DNA of 42,569 nucleotides from Thermoanaerobaculia bacterium (GTDB lineage Bacteria > Acidobacteriota > Thermoanaerobaculia > Multivoradales > JAHEKO01). Below the pieces are notes generated by a model. It was not told the origin of the DNA, did no database searches, and worked only from the letters and a program-made list of their open reading frames with translations. A program made the translations under genes and the position numbers. Positions 10,723 to 40,048 of the stretch are shown in pieces (the first letter of the stretch is position 1; each line of letters starts with the position of its first letter). Location of the stretch: NCBI GenBank assembly GCA_041575955.1, contig JBFGLX010000001.1:1-42569 (forward strand). Reading direction: 5' to 3'.

Positions 10723-12890
10723 CCAGGGAGCTCTGGTGCACCGTCGGCCCGGCCTCGCGGCTCCCCGGCGTGGTCGAACGTCTGGAGGACCTCGGCGTCT
10801 CGCTGTTCCGCATCAACCTCTCGCACACCGGCGTCGACGAGCTGCCCGGGCTGCTGCGATCGCTGGCCGCCCGAACCAAGGTGCCGCTCTGCCTCGACAC
10901 CGAGGGCGCGCAGGTGCGTACCGGCGACCTGATCGAGCCGACCGTCGAGCTCGAGGAGAACGCCAGCTGCGTGATCCGGTCGGGCGACGGCCCGGGGGAC
11001 GCGGCGAGCTTCTGCCTCAATCCGCACGACGTGGTCGAGCGCCTGGAGGTGGGCGATCTGCTGAGCATCGACTTCAACGCGGCGCTGGTCCAGGTGGTCG
11101 AGCGCGGCCCGGGGACGGCGACGCTGCGGGTGGTCAACGGCGGCCTCATGGGTCGCAACAAGGCGGTGACGCTCATGCGCGAGCTCGCCCTCCCCGCCCT
11201 GACCGTGAAGGACCGCGCCGCCCTGAAGATCGGCGCCGAGCTCGGCCTGCGCCACATCGCGCTGTCGTTCGCCAATCGGCCCGAGGACGTCGACGAGATT
11301 CGCGCGGTCTTCGGCCGGCCGGCGTTCGTGATCTCGAAGATCGAGTGCGTGCGGGCGTTGCGCAACCTGGACGCCATCATCAAGCGCTCCGACGCGATCG
11401 TCATCGACCGCGGCGACCTGTCGCGCGAGGTGCCGATCGAGCGCATCCCGAGGCTCCAGAAGCGCATCACGGCACGCGCCCGGGAGCTCGGCAGCAAGGT
11501 CTACGTCGCCACCAATCTGCTCGAGACGATGGTCACCTCGCCGCAGCCGACCCGCGCCGAGGTGAACGACGTGTTCAACACCCTGGCCGACGGCGCCGAC
11601 GGCCTGGTCCTGGCGGCGGAGACCGCCGTCGGCGAGTTTCCGATCCAGTGCGCCAGCATGATCCGGGCGCTCATGTACGAGTTCGAGTCGGAGAATGGAG
11701 CGAGCGGCTCGCCGGGCGTTTCGGACGATCCGTTCTCGCTCCTGGTGGAGCCGCACGGCGGGCGCCTGGTGCAGCGGCAGCTCGCGCCCGAAGCGCTCGA
11801 CGACCTCGACCGGCTCCCCCGGCTGGCGGTCGGGCTGCTCGACCTGCTCGAGGTCGAGCAGATCGCGACCGGCACCTACTCGCCGATCGCCGGATTCATG
11901 ACCCGAGCGACCCTGGAAAGCGTTCTGGCCGGCAACCGGCTGCCGGACGGAACCCTCTGGACCATGCCGATCGTCCTTCAGGTCGGGGCCCGCGAGGCCG
12001 GCCGCCTCGCCGCCGGCGACCGGGTCGGCCTGACCGGCGAGGACGGCACGCTGCACGCGCTGCTCGACGTCGCCGAGGTCTACCGGGTCGACCTGGAGCA
12101 GGCGGCGAGACAGTGGTTCGGCACCACCAGCCGCGCCCATCCCGGAGTCGCGCGCCTGATCGATCGCGGCGACACCTTCGTCGGCGGTGGGGTCACGCTC
12201 GTTCAGCGCCTACCGTCGCCCTATCGCCTGTTCACGCTCACGCCGGCCCAGACGCGCCTGGTCTTCGCCCACAAGGGGTGGAGCCGCGTGCTCGGCTTCC
12301 ACACCCGCAACGTCTGCCACCGGGTGCACGAGTTCATCCAGCTCCGGGCGCTCGCCGAGACGCACTCCGACGGCCTGTTCATCAGCCCGGTGATCGGGCC
12401 CAAGAAGGAGGGCGACTTCCTGCCCGGGCCGATCATGCGCAGCTACGAGGTGCTGCTGGGCGGCGGCGACGTCTACCCGCCGGGCAAGGTGGTGCTCGGC
12501 AGCTTCGCCACGTTCTCCCGCTACGCCGGTCCGCGCGAGGCGGTGTTCACCGCCCTCTGCCGCAAGAACATGGGCTGCAGCCACTTCATCCTCGGCCGCG
12601 ATCACACCGGCGTCGGCGACTTCTACCCCGCCGACGCGAACCGCCGGCTGTTCGAGCAGCTTGGCGATCTCGGGATCACGCCCGTCTTCAGCGAAGCGGT
12701 CGGCTACCACCCGCCGAGCCGCAGCTACCGGACGCTCGGCAGCGCCGGCACGCTCGAGCCGATCAGCGGCACCCGGATGCGCCAGGCGCTGCGCAACGGC
12801 GACGAGCTGCCCGACTGGTTCATCCGCACCTCCATCCAGGAGATGCTGCGCGCCGAGATCGCGGCCGGCCGGCCGGTCTTCGTCTCCTGA
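10719..12890 (+). CDS. Fusion protein: pyruvate-kinase-like A/B barrel (N-terminal) + ATP sulfurylase / sulfate adenylyltransferase (C-terminal)
   Basis: 723 aa from the ATG at 10719 (ATGA overlap with the upstream gene). PK motifs: RINLSHTG, LDTEGAQVRTG, ISKIE, DRGDLSREV, ATNLLETMV..PTRAEVNDV..GADGLVLAAETAVG. ATP sulfurylase motifs: EPHGGRL, YSPIAGFM, FHTRNVCHRVHE, GRDHTGVG. The 708-nt 5' extension in the track (10011..) is Arg-rich shadow sequence. Confidence 0.85.
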   Translation: MTRELWCTVGPASRLPGVVERLEDLGVSLFRINLSHTGVDELPGLLRSLAARTKVPLCLDTEGAQVRTGDLIEPTVELEENASCVIRSGDGPGDAASFCLNPHDVVERLEVGDLLSIDFNAALVQVVERGPGTATLRVVNGGLMGRNKAVTLMRELALPALTVKDRAALKIGAELGLRHIALSFANRPEDVDEIRAVFGRPAFVISKIECVRALRNLDAIIKRSDAIVIDRGDLSREVPIERIPRLQKRITARARELGSKVYVATNLLETMVTSPQPTRAEVNDVFNTLADGADGLVLAAETAVGEFPIQCASMIRALMYEFESENGASGSPGVSDDPFSLLVEPHGGRLVQRQLAPEALDDLDRLPRLAVGLLDLLEVEQIATGTYSPIAGFMTRATLESVLAGNRLPDGTLWTMPIVLQVGAREAGRLAAGDRVGLTGEDGTLHALLDVAEVYRVDLEQAARQWFGTTSRAHPGVARLIDRGDTFVGGGVTLVQRLPSPYRLFTLTPAQTRLVFAHKGWSRVLGFHTRNVCHRVHEFIQLRALAETHSDGLFISPVIGPKKEGDFLPGPIMRSYEVLLGGGDVYPPGKVVLGSFATFSRYAGPREAVFTALCRKNMGCSHFILGRDHTGVGDFYPADANRRLFEQLGDLGITPVFSEAVGYHPPSRSYRTLGSAGTLEPISGTRMRQALRNGDELPDWFIRTSIQEMLRAEIAAGRPVFVS

Positions 12891-17899: not shown

Positions 17900-19014
17900 T
17901 CGCGCGCCTCTCCGGTTTGAAGACTCCGGTAGACGTCCAGGATCCGCTCGTGCATCGTCTCTTCGCTGTAGCTCTCGCGCACGGTCGCGGCCGCCCGGGC
18001 CCCGAGCCGGGCGGCCTCTCGCGGGTCGCCCAGGAGCCTCAGCAGACCCCGGCTCAGCGCCTCCGGGTCGCCCGGAGCGACCACCACTCCGGTGCGCCCG
18101 TCCTCGAGCAGGCTCCGGACCCCGCCGACCGCGGTGCAGACGAGAGGCTTGGCCATGGCCATCGCCTCCAGCAAGGTCAGGGGCAGGCCCTCCCACAACG
18201 AGGACGAGACGACCACATCGAGCGCCGCCAGAGTCGCGGGGACATCGCGCGAGATGCCGGCGAACACGACGTGCTCCTCGAGCCCCAGACGTGCCCGCTG
18301 GGCCTCGAGCTCGGGCCGCAGCGGGCCGTCGCCCACGATCACGAAGCGCGCCCCGGGCATCTCCCGCACGACGATCGCCGCCGCCTCGAGCAGTACGTGA
18401 TGGCCCTTCTGCGGCTCGAGGCGGCCGACGATGCCGATGGCCGGGTCGCCGGGCTCCAGCCCCCAGAGGGTCGTCTTGTCCGCCGGCACGACCCGCTCCG
18501 GGTCGAACCTCTCCAGGTCGATGCCGTTGTCGATCGAGACGATCTTCTCCGCCGGGTAGGTGCCGGTCTCGACCAGAAACTCCCCGGCCTCGCGCGAGAC
18601 CGCGATCACCTTCTGGCACCGGCGGGTGCAGACCCGGTGAATGAGGGTCAGCAGCTTGTTCCGCCGCCAGGGGTCTTCGTTGTGGATCGAGGAGACCCGC
18701 ACCCGGGTGCCCGCGATCGCGGCCGCCGGTTGGCCCAGCAGATCGCTCTTGCGCAGGTGGGTGTGAACGACCTCGGGGCGTTCCCGCCTGAGGAGGGCGA
18801 GCAGGCGGAAGAGGGCCCGGGGATCCGCCAGACCCCGCCGGCTGATGCGATGCACCGGCACCCCGAGCTCCGTCAGCTCGTCGTGGAGCGGGCCCTCAGA
18901 GAAGTACGCCACCTGGATCTGATGATCCAGCCGGAGATACCTCCGCACCATGGCCAGGAGTAGCATCTCGGCGCCCCCGATCTTGAGGCTGTCTATGACG
19001 TAGAAGATCCGCAT
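17890..19014 (-). CDS. Glycosyltransferase family 4
   Basis: 374 aa from the ATG at 19014 (MRIFYVIDSLKIGGAEMLLL...). Carries SSSLWEGLPLTLLEAMAMAKPLVCTAVGGVRSLLEDGRTGVVV. Overlaps the downstream GT4 by 10 nt. Confidence 0.85.
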   Translation of the reverse strand: MRIFYVIDSLKIGGAEMLLLAMVRRYLRLDHQIQVAYFSEGPLHDELTELGVPVHRISRRGLADPRALFRLLALLRRERPEVVHTHLRKSDLLGQPAAAIAGTRVRVSSIHNEDPWRRNKLLTLIHRVCTRRCQKVIAVSREAGEFLVETGTYPAEKIVSIDNGIDLERFDPERVVPADKTTLWGLEPGDPAIGIVGRLEPQKGHHVLLEAAAIVVREMPGARFVIVGDGPLRPELEAQRARLGLEEHVVFAGISRDVPATLAALDVVVSSSLWEGLPLTLLEAMAMAKPLVCTAVGGVRSLLEDGRTGVVVAPGDPEALSRGLLRLLGDPREAARLGARAAATVRESYSEETMHERILDVYRSLQTGEARECV

Positions 19015-20192
19015 GTCCGGCCCGGCGCGGCCACGATAACCTGTCGGTAGAGTTCCGGAAAGCGGGCCGCCACGACCGGCAGAGAGTAGCGCGACGCGAC
19101 CCGCTCGCGGGCCCGAAGGCCGACCGCGGCCCTCCGTTGCGGCTCGTTCAGGGCCGCCAGGACAGCCCGTCTCAGCGCCTCCGGCTCGCCCGCGGGAATC
19201 AGCCAGCCATTCTCGCCCGGATCGATCAGCTCGGGACCCGCGCCCACGGCGGTAGCCACGCACGCCAGCCCCGCGGACATCGCTTCGAGGAGCGCGTTCG
19301 AAAGGCCCTCGGCGGACGAGGGCAGCACGAACAGGTCTGCGGCCTGCAGGTAGGGGGCCACATCGAGCACCGGGCCGGGCAGAGACACTCCCTCGCCGGC
19401 GGCCCGAGCCAGGCTGGCCGCCTGGTCACCCGAGCCGACCAGCACGAGCTGCGCTCCCGGGCAGCCGGCGCGCACCGCCGGCCAGATGCCGACCAGGTCG
19501 TGCAGCCGCTTCTCCGGTGCCAGCCGTCCCGTGTAGACCACGATCGGGCCCTCGGGCAGATCGAGAGCGCTCCGGAGCGCGGCCTTGCGATCGGGCGCCA
19601 GCGGGGCGAAACGCCCGGTGTCCACCGCGTTGGGGATCGAGATCCGCCGCTCCGGCGGCACGCCTGCGGCGTCGAGCTCGGCATCGATCTCGCGACTGAT
19701 GACGACGAACCTGTCCACGCCCCGGCGCAGCCACGCGATCCGGCGGTGGCCGAGGAACCTGCCGCGCAGCCTCGCGAGGTCGCCCAGATGGCCGCCGCGC
19801 GGCACCTTGACGACCACCGGGGTGCCGAAGATCCGCTTCGCCACCAGCGCCGTGGTCGACGGGGAATAGAGATCGTGGGCATGCAGCACGTCCGGCCGCA
19901 ACCGCCTCAACAGGCGCAAGGCGGCCACCGTGAAGGTGAGCGACTTGACGGCTTTGGGCCCGGTGGCGGGCAGGCGGTGAACCGAGACGCCCTCGATGTT
20001 CTCCTGGGGCGCGAGGCCGGGGAAGCGCCGGGTCAGGACGTCGACCCTCAGACCCCGGGCCACGAGCGCCGGCGCCACTGCCGCCAGCTGACGCTCGGCC
20101 CCACCGACCACCGGGTAGTATCCGTTGATCAGCATCGCGACCCGGATCGGCTCGCCACCGGACGGCCGCTCGGCCCGGGCGTCGCCGGTCAC
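18993..20192 (-). CDS. Glycosyltransferase family 4
   Basis: 399 aa from the GTG at 20192 (GTGA overlap with the upstream stop). Carries IRVAMLINGYYPVVGGAERQL and LFVLPSSAEGLSNALLEAMSAGLACVATAVGAGPELIDPGENGWLI. A later start near VAMLING is possible. Confidence 0.8.
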   Translation of the reverse strand: MTGDARAERPSGGEPIRVAMLINGYYPVVGGAERQLAAVAPALVARGLRVDVLTRRFPGLAPQENIEGVSVHRLPATGPKAVKSLTFTVAALRLLRRLRPDVLHAHDLYSPSTTALVAKRIFGTPVVVKVPRGGHLGDLARLRGRFLGHRRIAWLRRGVDRFVVISREIDAELDAAGVPPERRISIPNAVDTGRFAPLAPDRKAALRSALDLPEGPIVVYTGRLAPEKRLHDLVGIWPAVRAGCPGAQLVLVGSGDQAASLARAAGEGVSLPGPVLDVAPYLQAADLFVLPSSAEGLSNALLEAMSAGLACVATAVGAGPELIDPGENGWLIPAGEPEALRRAVLAALNEPQRRAAVGLRARERVASRYSLPVVAARFPELYRQVIVAAPGRTCGSSTS

Positions 20193-21325
20193 CCTGGTCC
20201 ACTCCGCCGCTCGGACCGCCGGCCGCCGCCGCACGCGACCTCCCGGGCCAGCTCGAGCAGCCGGTCGGCCCATCTGTCGGGACCGTAGTTGCGGGCCACG
20301 TGGCGCCGCGCCGCGGCGCCCATCGCCACCGCTCCCGCCCGATCGTCGAGCACCGATCGCAGGGCTTCGGCCAGGGCGCGGGGCCGCCCCGGCTCGACCA
20401 GCAGACCGGTACCCTCCGCCACCACCTGCGGCAGATCGCCGACGGCGGTTGCCACCACCGGCAGCCCGGCCGCCATCCCCTCGAGAACGCTGAGCGGCAG
20501 CCCCTCCCAGAGGGAGCTGCTGACGTAGACGTCGACCGCCGCCAGCAGCCTGGGCACGTCACCGCGGACCCCCAGAAGATGGGCGTGACCGGCCAGGCCG
20601 GAGGCTTCGATCTGCGCCGCGAGCTCGCCGGCCCGGGGGCCACCACCGGCGATCACGAGCGCCGCGCCGGGGTGGGTCAGGCGGAGCTCGCCGAAGGCCG
20701 TCAGCAGATCGTCGAACGCCTTCTGACGCCGCAGCATGCCGGTGGACATGACAATGAAGTCCTTGCCGTCGCCCGCCAGCTCGCGGCGGATCGAGCACCG
20801 CTCGGCCTCGGCCAAAAGCGGGATCGGCGCCACCGGATTCGGGATCTCGATCGGGCGCCTGCCGCCGAGGCGCTCCTGATGCGCCTCGGCGACCGCACGT
20901 CCGACGGCCACCACCCGGCGCGACAGACGCCGCAGCGTCCAGGACTCGAGCGCGCCGCGCAATCGGTTGGGCGGCGGAGCCTCGCTGTGCAGGGTCGAGA
21001 TCGCCGGCGTGCCGGCGAGGGCCGCGGCGATCGGCCCCAGGATGTTGGCCGTCGACAGGTGCGTGAACAGGACGTCGAAGCGCTCCCGGCGCAAGAGCCG
21101 GACCAGACTGACCAGCTGCCGCGGATCGGACAGGCTGGCGCTCCCAAGGGTCACCAGCCGGGCGTCGAGCGCCGCCAGCTCGCGGAAGATCTCCGGGTAC
21201 CGGGGCGGCTTCAGACCCACGATCGTCACCTCCACGCCGCGCTCCCGGGCCGCGCGGGCGAAGAGCACTTGCAGCTTCTCGGCGCCGCCTACGGTCAGGG
21301 AGTCGATCAGCTGGACGATGCGCAT
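20189..21325 (-). CDS. Glycosyltransferase family 4
   Basis: 378 aa from the ATG at 21325 (MRIVQLIDSLTVGGAEKLQVLF...). Carries SSSLWEGLPLSVLEGMAAGLPVVATAVGDLPQVVAEGTGLLV. Confidence 0.85.
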   Translation of the reverse strand: MRIVQLIDSLTVGGAEKLQVLFARAARERGVEVTIVGLKPPRYPEIFRELAALDARLVTLGSASLSDPRQLVSLVRLLRRERFDVLFTHLSTANILGPIAAALAGTPAISTLHSEAPPPNRLRGALESWTLRRLSRRVVAVGRAVAEAHQERLGGRRPIEIPNPVAPIPLLAEAERCSIRRELAGDGKDFIVMSTGMLRRQKAFDDLLTAFGELRLTHPGAALVIAGGGPRAGELAAQIEASGLAGHAHLLGVRGDVPRLLAAVDVYVSSSLWEGLPLSVLEGMAAGLPVVATAVGDLPQVVAEGTGLLVEPGRPRALAEALRSVLDDRAGAVAMGAAARRHVARNYGPDRWADRLLELAREVACGGGRRSERRSGPG

Positions 21326-21432: not shown

Positions 21433-22827
21433 TCAGCAGCCTCCCTTACGGCCCAGCACCACGCTCGCGGTGCGGTAGAGGATCCACATGTCCAGAAACA
21501 GGTTGCGCCGCTCGATGTAGGAGATGTCGATACGCGCCCGCTGCTCGAAGTCCGACGAGCCGCGACCATTGATCTGCCACAGGCCGGTGAGGCCGGGCGG
21601 CACCGTCAGGCGCGCCTTCTGCCACAAGGTGTAGGTCTCGTCGGAGAAGGATGTGGGGCGAGGCCCGACCAGGCTCATCTCGCCGCGCACGACGTTCAGC
21701 AGCTGCGGCAGCTCGTCGAGGCTGGTCTCGCGCAGGAAGCGGCCTACGCGGGTGACGCGCGGATCCTCCTTCAGCTTGAAGTCGGGCCACGGCATCTCGC
21801 TCTGCGGGCGCAGCTCGGCCTTGAGCTCCTCGGCCTCCGGCACCATGGTCCTGAACTTGAACAACTGAAAGCGCCGTCCCCACCTGCCGACGCGAGTCTG
21901 CTGGAACAGAACCGGCCCACCGGGCGAGCTCACCTTGATGGCGATCGCGATCAGCGCGAAGACGGCGAGCCACAGGGGCGCGAACAGACCGACCACGAGC
22001 AGGTCGAACGCCCGCTTCGCTACCCAGCCGGCGCGCTCGTTGAGCGACGGCTCCGCCAGCGCGCTCGGGTCCCAGGCGACGCTGCCGCCGGTGAGCCGCG
22101 GGCCGCGGTGCGGCCGCGAGCGCTTTACCTCGGCCTCGATCGAGCGCCGCCTCGCGGACGCCTTCTCGAGCTCGGTGAACGGCATCTCCAGCTGACCGGT
22201 CTCGCCGAGGCGCTCGGGCGGCATCAGGCTCGACTCGGCGAGCTGCACCAACTGTCGCAGGCTGAGGGCCTGGTCGGGGAACGTCGCCACCCCGAGCTGG
22301 GCCTCGATGCCGAGCTGGCGGCTCAGCGCCAGGGCGATCTTCTTCGCCACTCTGACGGCGTTCTTCCAGCCGGTTTCCGGGCAGAGCAGAATCAGCCTGT
22401 GGGGCTCTTCGCCGGCGATCGTCAGGTCGCTGCGCCGGGTCGAGTCGGCGGCCACCTTCGCCGCCCAGCTCAGGGCGTAGGAGCCCAGGTACCGGCGGCT
22501 GGTCTCGAGCCTCACCTCTTTGAGCTGCGCCGCGAGCGACTCTTCGTCGATCTCGACGACGATGCAGCTCAGCGGGCGCTCGTGACGGGAGGCGAGGAGG
22601 AACTGCTGCGCGGCCGGGTCGACAGCCGGAGGCGCCGCCGCGGCTCCGAGGCCCCGCACTCGATTCCCGTGATGCGCCGGCTGCACCGCGCCCGCGAGCC
22701 GCACCAGGCGCAGCGACGCATCCGACTCGTCAGTCGTCCGTCGATCGACTGGCGAGCGCCGATCCATTCCGGTCCGGAAGAGCAAATCCACTGAAACGAG
22801 GTTAAGGAGCGTCGCGATTCCTGTCAA
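21433..22827 (-). CDS. Priming polyprenyl-phosphate sugar-phosphate transferase (bacterial sugar transferase, WbaP/EpsB-like) with an N-terminal degenerate GGDEF-like module
   Basis: The C-terminal 200 aa read [95 protein letters not shown]. The start is uncertain: TTG 22827 in the track, or ATG 22767. Confidence 0.85.
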
Positions 22828-32021: not shown

Positions 32022-33737
32022 ATGTCGAAGAGCATGCGCACGGTGCTACTCCTGGCCCTGGCCCTGGCCGCGGTCCTGGTCCTTGGGGACTTCGCCAGAA
32101 AGGCCGCCGAGGCCCAAGCCGTTCCTCAGCCGCGCCAACCCGCGCTCCCCGAGACGCCGGAGACGGCCGAAGAGGGCGACTGGGAGGCCGAAGACTCGGA
32201 CTCGGATTCGTCCGAGGACCAGGAGTGGTCCGGCGAGGACGACGAAGGAGAGTCCGCGCCTCGCGCCGCGGGCGCACCGGCCGGCGACTGCCGGCCAATC
32301 GACCCCAAGGCCGACTACACCGACGATCCCGATCAGCTGGCCAACAGGCTGCGGCAGGATGGCGCCTGGCCGCCCTGTGATCGGGGAGGCCTGGACAAGA
32401 GCGGCGGAAGCACCGGCCTCGACCAGATCCAGGCCGCCTTCGACATCTTTGCCTGGGACACGTTCGTCGCCCTCAACTGGCCGGCGAGCTCGCCGGGGGA
32501 GCCCGACCCGTCACGGGTGATCGGCGACGGCAAGAACGGCGACAACGAGACCGTCTGGGAGAGCTGGAAGGAGAGCTTCGAGATCTTCCTGCCCAACGGC
32601 GCAGCGCCTTCGGCCTGGGGCGATCCACGAGTGCCGCCCGCCGTCTGCCCCACCACCGATGGCCGGACCCGCCGGGTCCTGACGCAGCTCGGCAAGGCGC
32701 CGCTCGACTTCGTCCACCGGGGACCCGACGGCAACGTCCTCGACGAGTTCTCCAATCCGTTCAAGAGCGGTCCGATCATCGACCAGATGGGCCGTTTCGC
32801 GCGCTTCGAGATCGCGGTGAACGAGACGATGTTCGACCACATCGTCACCAACGTCTTGTACAGCAGGGCGGGCCAGCGGCAGTACGCCCTGGAAGCGGCA
32901 AAGCCGGGCAGCCAGCTGCCCAAGCACAGGGGCAAGCCGGCCGTGCAGTTCCCGTACGGGCGCATCGCCAAGCAAGATCCGGACGATCCCAGCGCCGGGG
33001 TCGGCTCGATCATGATCAAAGCGGGCTGGATGGACCTCACGGGCTACGACGAGGAGGTCGTGAGGACCTTCCACACCAAGACGGGTTTCGTCTACACCCC
33101 GGCGGAAAAGGAGTCGGGGATCGAGGAGCGGTGCGAGCTGAAGACGATGGGCCTGGTGGGCCTCCACATCGCCCACAAGACCTGCTTCGCTCCGCAGTGG
33201 GTCTGGGCCACCTTCGAGCACGTTGACAACGTGCCCACGCTCGATGACGTGATGCTCGACAACTTGAAAGACCGGTACAACTTCTACAAGCCGCACTGCA
33301 CGGACTGCGAGCCGGTCAACCAACCGCCCGCCGACCGGCCCTGGAACCCGAACAAGGGAGCCAAGCCCTCCCAGATCGTGCGCATCGACTCGATCCCCAA
33401 ACTGGATCCCAACGCCGAGCGCCTGAACGAGCTTTACCACCAAGCGCTCGCACGCTTGAGCCCCGATTCAGTCTGGCGGCACTACGAGCTGATCAGCGCC
33501 CAATGGCCCACCAGGACGAACCGAGACGAGTGCACGACCCTGAGATCCAACCCCGGTGGCGATCCGGCCCCCAACTTCCTCGCCAACACCACTCTCGAAA
33601 CCTACATCCAGGGGCACACGCCGCGGGTGTCGTCGAACTGCACCGACTGCCACGGCGACGCGACGACGACGGCGACCGGGACCAAGCAGAACGTGCTGCA
33701 TGCGGATTTCACCTTCCTGCTCGAGAGAGCCAACTAG
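32022..33737 (+). CDS. Secreted 571-aa protein with an acidic low-complexity N-terminal region and a single C-terminal CxxCH (putative mono-haem c)
   Basis: ATG preceded by GAGAGGA. Signal peptide: MSKSMRTVLLLALALAAVLVLG...AEAQA. An acidic tract (EEGDWEAEDSDSDSSEDQEWSGEDDEGE) follows. NCTDCH lies at nt 33639-33653, followed by DFTFLLERAN at the C-terminus. Confidence 0.75.
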   Translation: MSKSMRTVLLLALALAAVLVLGDFARKAAEAQAVPQPRQPALPETPETAEEGDWEAEDSDSDSSEDQEWSGEDDEGESAPRAAGAPAGDCRPIDPKADYTDDPDQLANRLRQDGAWPPCDRGGLDKSGGSTGLDQIQAAFDIFAWDTFVALNWPASSPGEPDPSRVIGDGKNGDNETVWESWKESFEIFLPNGAAPSAWGDPRVPPAVCPTTDGRTRRVLTQLGKAPLDFVHRGPDGNVLDEFSNPFKSGPIIDQMGRFARFEIAVNETMFDHIVTNVLYSRAGQRQYALEAAKPGSQLPKHRGKPAVQFPYGRIAKQDPDDPSAGVGSIMIKAGWMDLTGYDEEVVRTFHTKTGFVYTPAEKESGIEERCELKTMGLVGLHIAHKTCFAPQWVWATFEHVDNVPTLDDVMLDNLKDRYNFYKPHCTDCEPVNQPPADRPWNPNKGAKPSQIVRIDSIPKLDPNAERLNELYHQALARLSPDSVWRHYELISAQWPTRTNRDECTTLRSNPGGDPAPNFLANTTLETYIQGHTPRVSSNCTDCHGDATTTATGTKQNVLHADFTFLLERAN

Positions 33738-33757
33738 AAAGCGCCGGAGGAGAGGAT

Positions 33758-34450
33758 ATGAGCGACGCCGAGCTGACACGAGAGGATCTCTTCGTGGGCC
33801 TGTCATCGATACTGACCGGCCTGCCACCGGGTGAGTTGAAGCCGTTTGCCGACAAAGACATGTTGAGCCAGATCTTCTGCGACAAGGTCATCAGCGAGGT
33901 GGGCGAAGACAAGCTCGACCACCTCCTCGAGCGCTTCGCCAACCGGTTCCACGAGCTGGTCCTGGCGATCGAGGGGCAGGACTCCGACCCGGGACTCGCA
34001 GCCCTGCGCCAGGAGTTCAAGAAGCTGGAAGCCAGGAGAAGCAGGTCGCTCCACTTTTCCGAGCAGGTGACCCTCGTCCTTCAGGAAGCCAAGCGACAGG
34101 GTGACGCCGCCTGGTGGATGGGCGCCTTCGCCGGCATCCTGAGCCCCGGCGTGAACGCCCCGCGGGAGGAGCAGGAGCAGGCCGGCATCGCGGCCTCGAT
34201 CATCAAGATGTGGTACCTGGGGTCCTGGTACGCGCCGGAGCCCAAGAACGACGGGGAGCGTTACTTCGGCGGCAAGGTCGTCCCGACGCCCGCCGCCCCG
34301 GGCATGGCCTACGTCAAGGGCTGGGTCTGGAGGGTAGCGCAGACGCACCCCATGGGAGTGGCCGGACACTTCGGCGCCCTGGGGGGAGAACACGGCGACT
34401 GGGGCGACCAGCCGCGCGCATCGCTCGACGACATGGTGGAGGGCAAGTGA
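33758..34450 (+). CDS. Homologue of the small subunit of membrane-bound FAD-dependent sugar dehydrogenases (FAD-SLDH/gamma-subunit family), lacking a Tat signal
   Basis: 230 aa. ATG preceded by GGAGGAGAGGA. The N-terminal LFVGLSSILTGL matches the F..LS..LTG motif. IIKMWYLGSWY ... WVWRVAQTHPMGV ... GDWGDQP resembles the conserved WYLG / W..pP C-terminal region of the family. Confidence 0.65.
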   Translation: MSDAELTREDLFVGLSSILTGLPPGELKPFADKDMLSQIFCDKVISEVGEDKLDHLLERFANRFHELVLAIEGQDSDPGLAALRQEFKKLEARRSRSLHFSEQVTLVLQEAKRQGDAAWWMGAFAGILSPGVNAPREEQEQAGIAASIIKMWYLGSWYAPEPKNDGERYFGGKVVPTPAAPGMAYVKGWVWRVAQTHPMGVAGHFGALGGEHGDWGDQPRASLDDMVEGK

Positions 34451-34453
34451 ACC

Positions 34454-36535
34454 ATGAGTGACATGCGTGATCCGAAGCACGAGGAGTACGACGTGGTGAT
34501 CGTGGGCGCCGGCATCGCCGGCGGGCTGGTGGCGCTGGAGCTGGCCCGGAACGGCAAGCGCGTGCTCATCCTGGAGGCCGGTCGGTACGGCTATGAAGGC
34601 AAGACGCGGCGGGCGGAGGACGCCAAGCTCCCGCTGCCCCCCGATCGCGCGGAGTACATGGAGAACTTCTTCATGGCGACCGCCAAGACTCCGAACGCGC
34701 CCTATCCGCCGCTGCCCTCGCCGGAGCCGCTGGACCCCCAGCCCGATCCGGCGCACGAGCACGTCCCGAGGGCGACGAATCTCGCGAGCAACGATTCCGT
34801 GTTCCGACACAAGGACCAGAGCTATCTGACCTACGAATACGGCTCGAGGCCCTACAAGAGCGGCTACGAGCGCGTCGGCGGGGGCACCACCTGGCATTGG
34901 TCGGCCACGGCCGTCAGGCTGTTCCCCAACGACTTCCGGATGCAGGACGAGTACGGCGACGAGGGGCGCTTTTCCGACGGCATGGAGAACTGGCCGGTCG
35001 GCTATGACGACGTGCTGCCTTTCTACAACCGGGCCAACCGCCTGATCGGCGTGGCGGGCAGCCGCGAGGTGGACGAGGAGCTGGGCCTGCCGTTCGACGA
35101 GGACTACCCCATGCCGCCGGTTCCGAAGACGCTGGTGGACCAGGCCTTCGAGGCGGCGAACGGCCTGGAGATCGACGGCGACGGCGAGGTGAGGGTCACG
35201 ATCACGCCCCAGGGCCGCAACACGATCCACTACCCCGACCCCAAGCTCGCCAAGGGCGATCCGGCCCTCGAGCGGGACCTGATCGGAGTGGAGCGCCGGG
35301 TGTGCGCGGGCAATACGAACTGCATTCCCATCTGCCCGATCCAGGCCAAGTACGACGCCACGGTGACGCTCAACGACGCCCTGGACACCACCAACTCCAG
35401 CGGCGAGAGCATGGTCGAGATCCTGCCCCAGAGCGTTGCCGAGAAGGTGCTCGTCGACCCCAACGGCAGGGTCGAAGGCATCCAGTACCTCCAGTGGGAG
35501 AAGGAGCCGGGGGACGCGCCCCGCGTGCCCAAGGTGGCCAAGGGAAAGATCTACGTGCTGGCGGCCCACGCCATCGAGAATCCGAAGCTGCTGCTCAACT
35601 CGGCGTCGGACGCGCTTCCGCAAGGCGTCGCCAACAGCGGTGGGAAAAGCCACGACAACGTCGGCCGGTACCTGATGGACCACGTGATGTACCTGACCTG
35701 GGCCCTCACCAGGGACCCGGTGTGGCCCTTCCGCGGGCCGGTCGCCACCTCCGGCATCGAGACCCTGCGCGACGGACCCTTCCGTCGCCACCGTTCCGCC
35801 TGGCGTATCGAGATCGGCAACGAGGGCTGGCAGTGGGCGAAGGGCGACCCCTACACGTCGGTCATCGACTTCGTCGACGGGCTGAACTCAACCGGCATCA
35901 ACGCCGAGAACGCGCGCAACCACCGCCGCCTGTTCGGCCACGACCTCTACCAGAAGCTCAACCACGATCTCACCCGCCAGGTGCGCATGGGGTTCCTGCT
36001 CGAGCAAGACCCGGTCAGAGACATGCGCGTGATGCTCGACCCCGACGACCGCGTGGTCGACGGGCTGGGCATTCGCCGGCCGATGATCTCGGGCTACGGC
36101 ATCTCCGAGTACACCAAGCGGGGCTTTCTGTCGGCGGAGGCGGCGTCGAAGGCGATCTGGGAGCGGATGGGAGCGACGCACTATCCCGAGGAGGGCCTTC
36201 CCGACAAGCCGAACTTCGGCAGGGAGGAGTACGACAGGATGAACGCAGATGCGGGCGGTGTTGGCGGCGCCTGCTTCGAGGTCAAGGTCGGCGACGAGAC
36301 CCGCTACTTCCCCTACTACGGGGCAGGTCACATCATGGGGACCCACCGCATGGGAACCGACCCGCGAACGTCGGTGTTGAACCATCGGCAGCAGAGCTGG
36401 GATCACGACAACCTGTTCATGGTGGGGAGCGGCGTCTTCCCGACGACGGCCACGGCCAACCCGACGCTCACCATCGCCGCCCTGGCGCTGATGGCGGCCG
36501 AGAACGTCCTGCACGATCTCGCCGAGCTGGGCTGA
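34454..36535 (+). CDS. GMC-family FAD-dependent oxidoreductase (catalytic subunit type of FAD-GDH/FDH/SLDH complexes)
   Basis: 693 aa. Carries YDVVIVGAGIAGGLVALELARNGKRVLILEAG, a Cys motif CAGNTNCIPICPIQAKYD (nt 35303-35335) like the 3Fe-4S site of Burkholderia FAD-GDH alpha, and a C-terminal GTHRMGTDP...VGSGVFPTTATANPTLTIAALAL. Confidence 0.9.
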   Translation: MSDMRDPKHEEYDVVIVGAGIAGGLVALELARNGKRVLILEAGRYGYEGKTRRAEDAKLPLPPDRAEYMENFFMATAKTPNAPYPPLPSPEPLDPQPDPAHEHVPRATNLASNDSVFRHKDQSYLTYEYGSRPYKSGYERVGGGTTWHWSATAVRLFPNDFRMQDEYGDEGRFSDGMENWPVGYDDVLPFYNRANRLIGVAGSREVDEELGLPFDEDYPMPPVPKTLVDQAFEAANGLEIDGDGEVRVTITPQGRNTIHYPDPKLAKGDPALERDLIGVERRVCAGNTNCIPICPIQAKYDATVTLNDALDTTNSSGESMVEILPQSVAEKVLVDPNGRVEGIQYLQWEKEPGDAPRVPKVAKGKIYVLAAHAIENPKLLLNSASDALPQGVANSGGKSHDNVGRYLMDHVMYLTWALTRDPVWPFRGPVATSGIETLRDGPFRRHRSAWRIEIGNEGWQWAKGDPYTSVIDFVDGLNSTGINAENARNHRRLFGHDLYQKLNHDLTRQVRMGFLLEQDPVRDMRVMLDPDDRVVDGLGIRRPMISGYGISEYTKRGFLSAEAASKAIWERMGATHYPEEGLPDKPNFGREEYDRMNADAGGVGGACFEVKVGDETRYFPYYGAGHIMGTHRMGTDPRTSVLNHRQQSWDHDNLFMVGSGVFPTTATANPTLTIAALALMAAENVLHDLAELG

Positions 36536-36551
36536 GAGGAAGGAGAGCTGG

Positions 36552-37469
36552 ATGCGATTGGATCGACGCACGAATCAGAGCTTCGCCACCCGGATTCTCG
36601 GGCTGATCACCTGCGGCGTGGTCCTGCTCGGCGGCTGGGCGGGCACGCGCGGGGCGGCGCTGGCGGCGGAGCCGGCGCCCGCCGGTGACGTCTGCCCCTT
36701 GTCCACGCCACCGGTCGACTACGAACCGGAGCCGGTGGAGCAGGAACAGGACCGCATCTTCATGCTGCTCGCCTACGCCGTGGTGTACAAGGACTGGCAG
36801 ACCGAGAGCTGGCCGCCGAGAGGCTCGGACGGGCCGCGCGCGCGCGGCTACAACATCGGATCGGTGCTGGTAAACGCCGAGACCAAACGGCCCGTCTGCT
36901 GGGCGCGCAACAACGTCATCCGCCTGCTCAACGGCACCCAGCACGGCGAGGTCCGCCTGATCACGAACTACCTGCACAACAACCGACATACGACCAAGGT
37001 GGGCGGCCACAGCGGCAGCTACAAGCTCTACACCTCGCTCGAGCCGTGCGTGATGTGCAGCGGGATGATGACCATGCAGCAGCTGGCGGTCACCATCTAC
37101 GGCCAGACCGATCCGAGCTTCGGCAAGGCCCTCGAGCGGCTCGAGGTCAACACCAAGACCGCTCTGCCCCACGGCTACTGTCCCTATCCCTGGCCGGTGC
37201 GCTCCATCCTGTCGGACGTCGACTACGCCAAGCGTCTCGACGAAACCTACGACCAGCTGCGCGCGCACCACGTGAACCTCACGACCTTCCTGAAGATGGA
37301 AGAGGCTCGGCAGATCTACGCAGCGGCCACCGCCGAGCTCGAGAGCTACCAGTTGCGCTTTCCCGAGGAGAACGCGGAGGTGCTGCTGGCCGCCCAGAGG
37401 TACCTCGAGGCGGTGCCGGACCATTTTGTCAATCTCCCGTATTCCGAGGCCTGCCCGGGCGGCAGCTGA
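36552..37469 (+). CDS. Signal-peptide-bearing cytidine/deoxycytidylate-deaminase-fold zinc protein (TadA/guanine-deaminase-like core + about 130-aa C-terminal extension)
   Basis: 305 aa. N-terminus MRLDRRTNQSFATRILGLITCGVVLLGGWAGTRGAALA-AE. Zn-site motifs HGEVRL (H131/E133) and TSLEPCVMCSGMM (C166/C169), at nt 36942-37058. Confidence 0.75.
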   Translation: MRLDRRTNQSFATRILGLITCGVVLLGGWAGTRGAALAAEPAPAGDVCPLSTPPVDYEPEPVEQEQDRIFMLLAYAVVYKDWQTESWPPRGSDGPRARGYNIGSVLVNAETKRPVCWARNNVIRLLNGTQHGEVRLITNYLHNNRHTTKVGGHSGSYKLYTSLEPCVMCSGMMTMQQLAVTIYGQTDPSFGKALERLEVNTKTALPHGYCPYPWPVRSILSDVDYAKRLDETYDQLRAHHVNLTTFLKMEEARQIYAAATAELESYQLRFPEENAEVLLAAQRYLEAVPDHFVNLPYSEACPGGS

Positions 37470-37624
37470 TGGCGCCGGTCCCGTGATCACCGCGCTCACG
37501 CGGGACGGCTGACCCGAGGACCGGTCCGGATTCCCGCCGCGAGCGGCTCGAAGCTCCCCGGCCGGCGTCGCGGCTCCCTGACGGAGCCCGGCCGGCGTCG
37601 CGTCAGTTGGTATCCTGGGATCTC

Positions 37625-39244
37625 ATGACCGAAAGAGAGAAACGCTGGCTGCCGCCGCTCTCGGGCCGCGGCAGGATCGCGGGATGGATCACCTGGGCTC
37701 TGCTCCTGACGGTGCTCGGGGCCATCGTCTGGCTGCAGACCGGCGACCCGTTCGGCGACCGCGGCAGCGCCAACGCCATGACGATGATTACGACGGCGCT
37801 CCTCGTCGTGATCTGGCTGGTCTGGTTCCTGCTCGGCAGCGGCCAGGTCTGGTGGCTGCGGCTCGTGCCGCTGGTCCTGGTCGTCGCCGGGGGCTGGGCG
37901 TTCTCCACCTTCTTTCGCTTCGAGGAGGTTTCGGGCGACTTCCGGCCCCGCTTCGTGCCGCGCGCGGCGGAGAAGCCCGACCGCCGGCTGGAGCCGCCGG
38001 CCGCGACCGGCGCTGCCGGCGTCGACCTCGCGAGCACCGGCGGGCACGACTTCCCGCAGTTCCTGGGGCCGGGGCGCGACCTGGTGGTCGACGGCGTCGA
38101 GCTGGCCCGCGACTGGCGCGCGCGGCCTCCGGAGCCGCTCTGGCGGCAGCCGATCGGCGCCGGCTGGTCGGGCTTCGCGGTGGTCAACGGCTACGCGTTG
38201 ACCATGGAGCAGCGCGGCGACCACGAGCTGGTCACCTGCTACGACGCCGAGACCGGAGCGCTCCGCTGGGCGCATGCCACCGAGACCCGCTTCGACATGC
38301 CGGTCCCCGGCGCCGGTCCGCGCGCGACCCCTACCGTCGACGACGGACTGGTCTACGCGCAGGGCGCGACCGGCCGGCTGCTGGCGCTCGACGGCGCCAC
38401 CGGCGCGGTGGTGTGGGAGCGGGATCTGCTGGCCGAGTTCGGCATGAGCGCCGAGCAGGAGGCCGCGCAGCTCCCCTATGGGCGCTCGGGCTCGCCGCTG
38501 GTCGTCGACGACCTGGTGATCGTCCCGGGTGGCGGCCCGAGCGCCGAGCGGCGCGCGTCGCTGGTCGCCTACCACAAGAGGACCGGCGAGAAGGTCTGGG
38601 AAGGGGGGCGCGAGCAGATCAGCTGCAGCTCGCCGGCGGTCGCCACGCTCGGGGGCGTGCGCCAGGTGCTGATCGTCAACGAGTCGAGCGCCAGCGGCCA
38701 CGACGTCGAGACCGGCCGGGTGCTCTGGAGCTTCCCCCGCAAGGGGCGCTCGAACGCCGACGCCAACGTCTCCCAGGCGGTGCCGGTGCCGCCGGACAAG
38801 GTGTTCCTGTCCAAGGGCTACGCGGTCGGCGCCGCGCTCGTCCAGCTCGTCCCGAACGGCGACGGCACCTTCGAGGCCGAGGAGCTCTGGCAAGACTCCC
38901 GCGTGATGCGCACCAAGTTCACCAACGTCGCCATCCGCGACGGCTACGTCTACGGCCTCTCGGACGGGATTCTCGAGTCGATCGAGCTCGCCACCGGCGA
39001 GCGCATGTGGAAGGGCGGCCGCTACAAGCACGGCCAGGTGCTGCTGGTCGGAGACCTGCTCCTGGTGCTGTCCGAGTCGGGCGAGCTGTTCCTGGTCGAG
39101 GCGACGCCGGAGCGCCCGAACAGCGTCCTGGCCAGCTTCCAGGCCCTCGACGGCAAGACCTGGAACACCTTCGCCCTCTACGGCTCCCGCCTGCTGGTGC
39201 GCAACGGCCAGGAAGCTGCCTGCTACGAGCTGCCGCTGGTCTGA
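37625..39244 (+). CDS. Membrane-anchored PQQ-like (BamB/PQQ_2) beta-propeller repeat protein
   Basis: About 3 N-terminal TM helices are followed by repeated units: ETGALRWAH, DGLVYAQGATGRLLALDGATGAVVWE, TGEKVWE, ETGRVLWSF, DGYVYGLSDGILESIELATGERMWK. ATG 37625 chosen; TTG 37607 is possible. Confidence 0.8.
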   Translation: MTEREKRWLPPLSGRGRIAGWITWALLLTVLGAIVWLQTGDPFGDRGSANAMTMITTALLVVIWLVWFLLGSGQVWWLRLVPLVLVVAGGWAFSTFFRFEEVSGDFRPRFVPRAAEKPDRRLEPPAATGAAGVDLASTGGHDFPQFLGPGRDLVVDGVELARDWRARPPEPLWRQPIGAGWSGFAVVNGYALTMEQRGDHELVTCYDAETGALRWAHATETRFDMPVPGAGPRATPTVDDGLVYAQGATGRLLALDGATGAVVWERDLLAEFGMSAEQEAAQLPYGRSGSPLVVDDLVIVPGGGPSAERRASLVAYHKRTGEKVWEGGREQISCSSPAVATLGGVRQVLIVNESSASGHDVETGRVLWSFPRKGRSNADANVSQAVPVPPDKVFLSKGYAVGAALVQLVPNGDGTFEAEELWQDSRVMRTKFTNVAIRDGYVYGLSDGILESIELATGERMWKGGRYKHGQVLLVGDLLLVLSESGELFLVEATPERPNSVLASFQALDGKTWNTFALYGSRLLVRNGQEAACYELPLV

Positions 39245-39325: not shown

Positions 39326-40048
39326 TTGGTCGTCAAGAAGATCGCAGCGTTCGATTTCGATCCCGGCGTCATCGTGGCCGGCAAGTACGAGATCGTCAGC
39401 CGGCTGGGGACCGGCTGGGAGGGTGAATCGTACCTGCTGCGCGAGCGCTCGACCCGCATCGAGCGGGCGGGAAAGTTCTTCTTTCCGCACCGCAATCCCG
39501 GCGACAGCTCGGCGCGGCGCTACGCCCGCAAGCTCCACAAGCTCGGGCGCTGTCCGATCATCATCGGGTACCACACGCGCGAGCGGGTCCGCTTCGACGG
39601 CGCGCTGGTCACCCTGCTGGTCTCCGAGTATGTAAGCGGCGAGCCGCTCGGCGCCTTCCTCGAGCGGCAGCCCGGCGGCCGGCTGCCGCCGTTCCAGGCG
39701 CTGCACCTGCTCCACGCCCTGGCCGCGGGCATGCAGTGCGTCCACCACCGCCGCGAGTACCACGGCGACCTGCACGAAGACAACATCATGGTCGACCGGT
39801 TCGGGCTCACGTTCGAGCTCAAGATCCTCGATCTCTTCAACCGCGGCCCGTTCAGCCGGGAGCGCGCCCAGGACGACCTGTGCGACCTGATCCGGCTCTT
39901 CTACGACGCCCTCGGCGGCCAGCGCCACTACGCCGCGCAGCCCCCGGCGGTCAAGGCGATCTGCCGCGGGCTCAAGCGCACGCTGATCCTGACGCGCTTC
40001 CCCTCCGTCGCCCGCCTGCTCGAGCACCTCGAGAGCCTGAGCTTCTGA
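39326..40048 (+). CDS. Small protein-kinase-like fold protein (atypical; Kdo/WaaP- or RIO-like size)
   Basis: 240 aa. Has a Gly loop (LGTGWEGESYL), a Lys (RAGKFF), the catalytic loop HGDLHEDNIMV, and ILDLF in place of DFG. TTG start. Confidence 0.65.
   Translation: MVVKKIAAFDFDPGVIVAGKYEIVSRLGTGWEGESYLLRERSTRIERAGKFFFPHRNPGDSSARRYARKLHKLGRCPIIIGYHTRERVRFDGALVTLLVSEYVSGEPLGAFLERQPGGRLPPFQALHLLHALAAGMQCVHHRREYHGDLHEDNIMVDRFGLTFELKILDLFNRGPFSRERAQDDLCDLIRLFYDALGGQRHYAAQPPAVKAICRGLKRTLILTRFPSVARLLEHLESLSF

Follow-up and report, generated by a model that had tools for sequence, protein, structure and literature searches.

A widespread module of a GMC flavoenzyme, a PF12318-like small subunit and an exported single-CxxCH protein, found in a Thermoanaerobaculia operon

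Introduction

The flavin adenine dinucleotide (FAD)-dependent dehydrogenase complexes of bacteria underlie direct-electron-transfer biosensors, and their usual architecture consists of an alpha subunit, a gamma subunit and a tri-haem cytochrome c. In the known complexes (Burkholderia glucose dehydrogenase, BcGDH, 6a2u and 8hdd; Gluconobacter fructose dehydrogenase, 7w2j; and the FAD-dependent sorbitol, gluconate and 2-ketogluconate dehydrogenases), the catalytic subunit is a GMC protein with an FAD histidine, a C-x5-C-x3-C loop and a His/Asn pair, the small-subunit gene lies directly upstream of the catalytic gene, and a haem protein is encoded in the operon. The same features are found in an operon at positions 32022 to 37469 of a 42,569-nucleotide (nt) stretch of DNA from a Thermoanaerobaculia bacterium (assembly GCA_041575955.1, contig JBFGLX010000001.1, positions 1 to 42,569; this whole stretch is called the window below). 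Its first three genes, which form a module of their own, are the subject of this paper.

In the canonical complexes, the folded alpha subunit is exported by the twin-arginine translocation (Tat) signal of the gamma subunit; in BcGDH, Cys212, Cys218 and Cys222 are the ligands of a 3Fe-4S cluster, and Cys213 forms a disulfide to the gamma (small) subunit that is not essential (PMC6719666). The acetol dehydrogenase (AceDH) of Methylacidiphilum fumariolicum likewise has a GMC alpha subunit and a small beta subunit, and its surface iron-sulfur cluster, a [Cu-4Fe-4S] cluster bound by the four-Cys motif CDQCGFCFQGC, delivers electrons to a separate c-type cytochrome and not to a tri-haem subunit (bioRxiv 10.64898/2026.06.11.731722). 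Neither the cluster nor the electron acceptor is thus uniform in this enzyme class.

The module of the window differs from the known complexes in its haem partner, which is unrelated to the membrane cytochrome c of about 450 amino acids (aa) with three haems and has a single CxxCH, a fold of its own and no membrane anchor. The gene of this partner is the first of the operon, most of the small subunits have no Tat signal, and the cysteine of the inter-subunit disulfide is absent. The proposed path from a surface iron-sulfur cluster to a c-type cytochrome is shared with AceDH, in which, however, the small subunit has a Tat signal, the acceptor is encoded elsewhere and the alpha subunit is 526 aa long.

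Results

Conservation of the three-gene module

The four open reading frames (ORFs) of the operon are the following:

32022-33737, plus strand: ORF1, 571 aa, an exported protein with one CxxCH and the proposed haem subunit
33758-34450, plus strand: ORF2, 230 aa, a small subunit of the sorbitol dehydrogenase (SLDH) type, PF12318-like
34454-36535, plus strand: ORF3, 693 aa and 76.9 kDa, a GMC flavoenzyme and the catalytic subunit
36552-37469, plus strand: ORF4, 305 aa, an exported zinc deaminase of the cytidine deaminase (CDA) fold and a lineage-specific accessory gene

Relatives of ORF1 were found in at least 574 species in a scan of one genome per GTDB species, and the best 80 loci, searched with the proteins of the window, were used as the conservation sample. 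Genes for ORF1, the small subunit and the GMC protein were directly consecutive, in this order and on the same strand, in 79 of these 80 loci, which belong to at least six phyla (Pseudomonadota, Acidobacteriota, Verrucomicrobiota, Bacteroidota, Myxococcota and Gemmatimonadota). The three coding regions of the Pseudomonas taetrolens module overlap by 4 nt. Lysobacter, Dyella, Luteibacter and Tahibacter, which are related to Stenotrophomonas, commonly have the module, and it also occurs in Flavobacteriia. No tri-haem cytochrome gene was found beside the module across the examined neighbourhoods, and a neighbour census found no further neighbour conserved across phyla. ORF1-ORF2-ORF3 is therefore a widespread module, uncharacterised in the literature searched. 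An earlier note, made from the sequence of the window alone, had called the arrangement atypical; this holds relative to the characterised complexes, but the arrangement is not rare.

The layout given in that note, with four genes separated by gaps of 20, 3 and 16 nt and a set of quoted motifs, was found exactly as described, and all four genes are co-directional. A scan of the plus strand found no terminator-like site between them, and purine-rich stretches resembling ribosome-binding sites precede ORF2 (GGAGGAGAGG) and ORF4 (GAGGAAGGAGAG). ORF2 starts at the internal methionine of MSDAELT; its mechanical reading frame extends further 5', overlapping ORF1 out of frame, and holds no signal-like sequence there.

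ORF2 and ORF3 share a reading frame and are separated only by TGA-ACC before the ATG (window 34448-34456), so that a hypothetical readthrough would fuse both proteins. Readthrough was also considered for the same-frame, single-stop junctions between ORF1 and ORF2 that occur at many loci, and was dropped, their frequency being close to the chance expectation.

The flavoenzyme and the small subunit

ORF3 matched GMC_oxred_C (E = 2.7e-16) and GMC_oxred_N (E = 6.4e-6) above the Pfam cut-offs and carries the GxGxxG FAD-binding motif as VIVGAGIAGG. Its best sequence matches in the PDB were the alpha subunits of Burkholderia FAD-dependent glucose dehydrogenase (8hdd and 6a2u, E about 1e-61), followed by the large subunit of Gluconobacter fructose dehydrogenase (7w2j, E = 5e-50), as expected from the earlier proposal that ORF3 is the alpha type of FAD sugar dehydrogenases. 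The alignment with BcGDH placed H148 at the covalent-FAD histidine, His105, and H626 and N669 at the catalytic pair His476/Asn519. The cysteine-rich loop of ORF3 is located as follows:

35303-35338, plus strand: CAGNTNCIPICP, aa 284-295 of ORF3, predicted 3Fe-4S loop with C284, C290 and C294

This loop aligns with CCGNNNCMPICP of BcGDH, so that C284, C290 and C294 correspond column for column to the cluster ligands Cys212, Cys218 and Cys222; they are accordingly predicted to bind a 3Fe-4S cluster, which agrees with the reading that the earlier note had given of this motif. The C-x5-C-x3-CP pattern was present in all of the 76 full-length GMC proteins of the module (76/76). The position of BcGDH Cys213 is Ala285 in ORF3, and all 76 proteins have A, H, Q, V or G there and never a cysteine. 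By its fold, FAD histidine, Cys triad and His/Asn pair, ORF3 is assigned to the alpha (catalytic) subunit type of the FAD-dependent dehydrogenase complexes, compared with whose catalytic subunits it is 80-200 aa longer.

The module GMC proteins of Pseudomonas have a C-terminal extension of about 130 aa (in locus L001, aa 610-747 at positions 11700-12114). A lectin domain was considered for it and rejected, the extension having no Pfam match.

ORF2 had no direct Pfam match at E up to 0.1, and searches of NCBIfam and PDB sequences returned nothing significant. Its database homologues (E from 1e-11 to 1e-5), however, carry PF12318, the small subunit of "membrane-bound FAD-containing D-sorbitol dehydrogenase", and all of the motifs that are invariant in this family (LTG, MWYLGxWY, AQTHPMG and GxW) are present in ORF2, with FVGLSSILTG at aa 12 and MWYLGSWY at aa 151. 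Judged by these motifs and homologues, ORF2 is probably a divergent small subunit of the PF12318 type, as had been claimed earlier. It has a helical insertion of about 75 aa. Its AlphaFold2 model (predicted template modelling score, pTM, 0.69) was all-helical, with low confidence in the C-terminal third.

The single-CxxCH protein ORF1

The N-terminus of ORF1 is a hydrophobic signal peptide, and CxxCH occurs only once in the protein. The two sites on which its interpretation depends are located as follows:

33639-33653, plus strand: CTDCH, aa 540-544 of ORF1, its sole haem c attachment motif
33018-33020, plus strand: Lys333 of ORF1, invariant in both family alignments and aligned with the cross-link lysine of cytochrome P460

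The CxxCH motif was kept in every ORF1 homologue of the 80 loci except one frameshifted copy. The family has 15 invariant residues, among them K333, H382 and C540/C543/H544, and some of the 15 lie outside the haem motif. The conserved core comprises about 440 aa (residues 133-571). It is preceded by a linker of 97 aa (aa 34-130, window 32121-32411) that follows the signal peptide, is disordered, rich in proline and acidic (27 Asp/Glu), is absent from all of the aligned homologues and is specific to the source lineage. The AlphaFold2 model of ORF1 (pTM 0.79) had a confident core, with residues 33-130 disordered.

ORF1 gave no Pfam, NCBIfam or PDB sequence match, including none to Cytochrom_C or Cytochrome_CBB3, and a Foldseek search of its model against the PDB found no usable relative (best E = 0.7, template modelling score < 0.1). 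These results bear out the statement of the earlier note that the place of the tri-haem cytochrome is taken by an unrelated protein. When 1.84 billion representative proteins were searched with the family profile, 5,275 clusters (50% identity) were retrieved with an E-value of at most 1e-3, and 1,804 with one of at most 1e-30. Members have about 450 aa, and the few that are named are labelled "cytochrome C" or "hypothetical"; homologues were found in Pseudomonas, Lysobacter, Dyella, Acidobacteriota and other taxa. In some members the ORF1 domain is followed, in the same protein, by a C-terminal di-haem cytochrome c part, and these fusions show that it works in electron transfer. From these searches, ORF1 is taken to be neither a tri-haem cytochrome nor a known enzyme, and to belong to a large family that has no Pfam model.

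Proposed three-component enzyme

A single enzyme is suggested by the conservation of the cofactor residues and by the constant company of the three genes, and we lean slightly towards the view that ORF1-ORF3 form one three-component redox enzyme, a variant form of the FAD-dependent dehydrogenase complexes of bacteria. In such an enzyme, ORF3 would oxidise an alcohol group of the substrate at its histidine-linked FAD by means of His626/Asn669, and the electrons would pass one at a time from the FAD to a surface 3Fe-4S cluster at Cys284/Cys290/Cys294. ORF2 would bind and stabilise ORF3. ORF1, an exported protein of about 45 kDa with a single c-type haem and its own fold, would replace the usual membrane-bound tri-haem cytochrome c, and its fold would probably be an expanded beta-sheet core like that of cytochrome P460, with a cross-link lysine. 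ORF1 would accept the electrons and most likely hand them straight to O2 at its haem, which would have an open coordination site, and not to the quinone pool. O2 or another small molecule is favoured as the acceptor because ORF1 has no membrane anchor and its haem is possibly open-coordinate. The physical complex, this direction of electron flow and O2 as the acceptor are thus what we infer for the module.

A Foldseek search of the ORF2 model gave no match at E up to 0.001, the solved gamma subunit of BcGDH included, and this result weighs against the assembly just described.

Comparison of ORF1 with cytochrome P460

Cytochrome P460 and cytochrome c'-beta (PF16694; 6hiu and 9hrk) resemble ORF1 in that they are exported, rich in beta-sheet and have a single CxxCH near the C-terminus, and P460 also shares with ORF1 a G-x-I-x-V-K-x-x-W strand that bears the lysine of the cross-link position. 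Cytochrome_P460 was the only recurrent Pfam match in the ORF1 family (9 of 94 members, best E = 1e-4), and a search of the family profile against PDB sequences at E up to 10 returned only two entries, both of P460 (E about 0.7-0.9). In the alignments, K333 of ORF1 fell on Lys78 of M. capsulatus P460 (McP460, 6hiu) and on the VK..W lysine of six plasmid-borne P460 proteins, and C540/C543/H544 fell on Cys140/Cys143/His144 of McP460. Lys78 is the residue of McP460 that is cross-linked to the haem (PMC12352625).

These signals agree with one another, but the link is weak. The best Cytochrome_P460 score among the ORF1 relatives was 23 bits for a cut-off of 27, so that all of these matches lie below the gathering threshold, and ORF1 itself did not match the P460 profile PF16694. 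Comparison of the ORF1 family with the six plasmid-borne P460 proteins by hhalign gave P = 1.8e-4 but a probability of only 48%, and among the PDB structures that Foldseek matched to the ORF1 model at E up to 10 there was neither a P460 nor a c'-beta entry. ORF1 also differs from P460 in its conserved core (about 440 aa compared with about 150 aa), in the presence of about 145 additional residues between the lysine and the CxxCH, and in its pairing with a flavoenzyme, since a GMC-P460 pairing was not found in the literature searched. Large insertions could mask a partial P460 fold match in ORF1. Taken together, these results leave a P460-like core in ORF1 plausible, at even chances or slightly better.

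A P460-like ORF1 might itself be the catalyst, acting on hydroxylamine, NO or a similar compound, with the flavin/iron-sulfur pair as its electron acceptor or donor. The P460-like signals, the cross-link lysine among them, would fit this explanation, as would five neighbouring genes for cyclic-nucleotide-binding (cNMP-binding, Crp/Fnr-type) proteins, and known P460 enzymes oxidise hydroxylamine (PMC11928373). The GMC active site of ORF3, however, is complete and implies an alcohol substrate of its own, nitrogen-cycle genes were not found in the neighbourhoods, and the P460 homology is itself unproven. We regard catalysis by ORF1 as highly improbable.

Export signals of the module proteins

A single complex requires all of its parts in one compartment, and the export signals of the module proteins lower our confidence in a physical complex for this reason. 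Homologues of ORF1 carry Sec or lipoprotein signals, whereas neither the small subunit nor the GMC protein has a signal peptide in 74 of 79 modules, that of the window included. The conserved motif of the mature domain stands at the very start of ORF2 and leaves no space for a signal peptide; neither a Tat signal nor a plausible upstream extension is present. The small subunits with PF12318 occur in two forms, one of about 190-230 aa that bears a Tat signal and one of about 165-180 aa that does not, and among the modules a Tat signal was found on the small subunit only in five from alpha- and betaproteobacteria (loci L077 and L084-L087). Either ORF2 and ORF3 are exported by some other route, or the parts lie in different compartments. 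The periplasmic or membrane location suggested by the earlier note is not supported for ORF2 and ORF3, which have no export signal; ORF1 is clearly exported.

If the parts are separated, ORF2 and ORF3 would be cytoplasmic and possibly membrane-associated, and ORF1, here together with ORF4, would be periplasmic and would work on the same compound ahead of its uptake or following its export, as successive steps of one pathway in two compartments and without a physical complex. Such a separation would account for the contrast between the 74 signal-less modules and the exported ORF1 homologues; the Tat-less PF12318 small subunits form a large separate group, and ORF4 and its family are exported as well. 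The five divergent modules with a Tat-bearing small subunit, however, place alpha and gamma in the periplasm with ORF1. In addition, the 3Fe-4S relay conserved in all 76 GMC proteins serves a protein partner, for which ORF1 is the only redox protein that is always present, and the gene order and translational coupling are extremely strict. A pathway divided between two compartments consequently seems quite unlikely to us.

Deaminases and the substrate of the module

ORF4 matched dCMP_cyt_deam_1 of Pfam above the cut-off (E = 2e-8), its zinc-site motifs (HGE at aa 131 and PCVMC at aa 165) are intact and a signal peptide is present, in agreement with the exported CDA-fold protein that had been described earlier. 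Its nearest relatives in the PDB were ADAT2 and TadA (E = 1e-5), and it has the H-x-E and PCxxC zinc site in common with TadA, ADAT2 and the guanine and cytosine deaminases, from which it differs by its export, a C-terminal extension of about 100 aa and terminal cysteines. An identification of ORF4 as TadA was rejected, since it scored 26.8 bits on the TadA equivalog of NCBIfam for a cut-off of 150 and has 305 aa with a signal peptide, compared with about 150-170 aa for the cytoplasmic enzyme. The ORF4 family is widespread, with proteins of about 265-320 aa whose Sec or lipoprotein signals and conserved terminal cysteines fit export.

No homologue of ORF4 was found in any of the 80 module loci (0/80) or beside the closest relative of the module (59% identical), and its homologues elsewhere stand alone in unrelated contexts. 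ORF4 was therefore rejected as a conserved fourth subunit and is regarded as an accessory gene; of the four genes that the earlier note had treated as one unit, only the first three are co-conserved.

A direct search found a two-domain cytidine deaminase of the Cdd type after the module at three loci, in Blastocatellia, Thermoanaerobaculia and Acidobacteriaceae. In Acidobacteriota this gene lies in the same operon, after a gene for a tandem-ABM protein. ORF4 and the Cdd-type protein are two unrelated members of the CDA superfamily that joined the operon independently, and two such recruitments hint at a nucleoside substrate. The nucleobase-bearing substrate guessed in the earlier note is thus backed independently by the Cdd-type deaminase, which shares the operon in three acidobacterial classes. 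If the substrate is a nucleoside, ORF4 would serve as an exported deaminase of nucleosides or nucleobases, specific to its lineage, that acts on the same substrates or on their products.

The module could also be an ordinary periplasmic dehydrogenase of sugars, polyols or glycosides that feeds the respiratory chain, with ORF1 as a six-coordinate carrier to a soluble cytochrome c, azurin or a terminal oxidase and the deaminase as an incidental neighbour. The closest characterised relatives of ORF3 oxidise glucose, fructose and sorbitol, the invariant H382 of ORF1 could serve as a sixth haem ligand, and the di-haem cytochrome c fusions of some ORF1 family members would suit a carrier. Moreover, no nucleoside genes lie near the Pseudomonas locus, and in the related GMC alpha/beta enzyme AceDH the electrons go to a soluble cytochrome that is a separate protein (bioRxiv 10.64898/2026.06.11.731722). 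The core of ORF1, however, is very large for a simple carrier of one haem and has invariant residues beyond the haem motif, ORF1 has no membrane anchor and the module no quinone-reactive subunit, deaminases of the CDA family were recruited independently in two lineages, and the neighbour census showed that sugar transporters and kinases are not enriched near the module. An ordinary dehydrogenase of this kind appears unlikely, though less so than a separation of the module proteins between two compartments.

Other genes of the window and of related loci

In Acidobacteriota, a BBE/FAD_binding_4 oxidase gene lies upstream of ORF1 (loci L024, L026, L030, L031, L032, L036, L044 and L047) and the tandem-ABM protein gene downstream of the GMC gene (loci L026-L052), both on the strand of the module, and these flanks together with the Cdd-type gene make a cluster of five or six genes. 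In Verrucomicrobiota, a gene directly upstream of the module and on the same strand encodes an exported protein of about 510 aa, called P2 here, with one CxxCH and no Pfam match. It was located at the following positions:

Locus L016, 6307-7455: P2
Locus L028, 6268-7494: P2
Locus L065, 6366-7526: P2
Locus L072, 6427-7566: P2
Locus L049, 12380-13780, minus strand: P2

P2 has strands that look P460-like (GTVIFKLLF and GWLFGTF). It was considered as a paralogue of ORF1, and this was rejected after hhalign gave a probability of 23%, which is no support.

Near-identical contigs of other assemblies have the same genes and, upstream of them, a HisKA_3/HATPase_c kinase, a REC-GerE regulator and a REC-only protein in their precomputed annotation, which confirmed the histidine kinase, response regulator and REC-only genes that the earlier note had placed upstream of the operon; their association with the module was not conserved.

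Downstream of the operon, a gene for a membrane-anchored PQQ_2 (BamB-like) beta-propeller (37607-39244, plus strand) starts 137 nt 3' of ORF4 and is followed by a gene for a protein with a protein-kinase domain (39326-40048, plus strand). A conserved link of the module to the beta-propeller was rejected, as only one distant match was found in the 80 loci. In Pyrinomonadaceae, ORF1-like/di-haem cytochrome c fusions adjoin a PQQ_2 protein and not a GMC gene (locus L003, 8001-11995). Comparison of the PQQ_2 protein of the window with those beside the acidobacterial ORF1-cytochrome fusions showed only a generic 23% identity.

Further upstream in the window, on the minus strand at 18993-20273, 21433-22827 and 141-2957, lie polysaccharide-synthesis genes (a group-1 glycosyltransferase and a Bac_transf sugar transferase) and a long ORF with a Flavoprotein (PF02441) domain at its C-terminus. 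These appear to be unrelated to the operon.

Discussion

Nucleoside oxidases are enzymes whose described properties resemble those predicted for the three-component enzyme. The enzyme EC 1.1.3.28 oxidises the 5'-hydroxyl of nucleosides and reduces O2 to water, and EC 1.1.3.39 of Flavobacterium (Elizabethkingia) meningosepticum has been described as a haem-containing flavoprotein. We know of no gene assigned to either EC number. The nucleoside oxidase (EC 1.1.3.28) of Pseudomonas (Stenotrophomonas) maltophilia LB-86, reportedly described by Isono, Sudo and Hoshino in 1989, is said to have chains of 76, 33, 18 and 14 kDa. It is also said to be soluble, to contain covalent FAD, non-haem iron with sulfide and one haem, and to reduce O2 to water.

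The masses calculated for the module are compatible with these reported values: ORF3 (76.9 kDa) with the chain of 76 kDa, the small subunit of Pseudomonas (18.5 kDa) with that of 18 kDa, and the mature ORF1 of Pseudomonas (46.4 kDa) with those of 33 plus 14 kDa, on the assumption that ORF1 is split into two chains. The cofactors predicted for the module (haem, iron-sulfur and covalent FAD) are those reported for the oxidase, and the module is linked genomically to nucleoside deaminases. A nucleoside substrate is what we infer from these likenesses, and we propose only tentatively that nucleosides are the preferred substrate class and that the module comprises the genes of nucleoside oxidase (EC 1.1.3.28 and 1.1.3.39).

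Several observations count against this proposal. The deaminases are linked to the module in only two lineages, and the neighbour census found no enrichment of nucleoside transporters, hydrolases or phosphorylases near it. The properties given above for nucleoside oxidase and gene assignments for it were not found in the literature searched, and no Stenotrophomonas protein was present among the named ORF1 matches.

The full sequence of proposals, in which ORF1 would be an expanded branch of P460 with a lysine-cross-linked open haem, would dock on the 3Fe-4S cluster of the GMC protein to give an oxidase that reduces O2 to water, and the module would be nucleoside oxidase and form with ORF4 an extracytoplasmic nucleoside-modifying pathway, is doubtful as a whole.

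Nucleoside oxidase has been used for making nucleoside 5'-carboxylic acids and in diagnostics. If true, its assignment to the module would give genes to an EC number that has been orphaned since 1989, and expression and engineering would then be possible. The absence of a Tat signal raises the question of whether a flavoenzyme loaded with its cofactors meets the haem partner in the periplasm at all and, if so, by what route. The ORF1 family comprises thousands of clusters and is without a Pfam model or a relative of solved structure; through it, the P460 cofactor may reach outside the enzymes of the nitrogen cycle. The module represents a second and very widespread design of the FAD-dependent dehydrogenase class, with another haem partner, that is unstudied in the literature searched.

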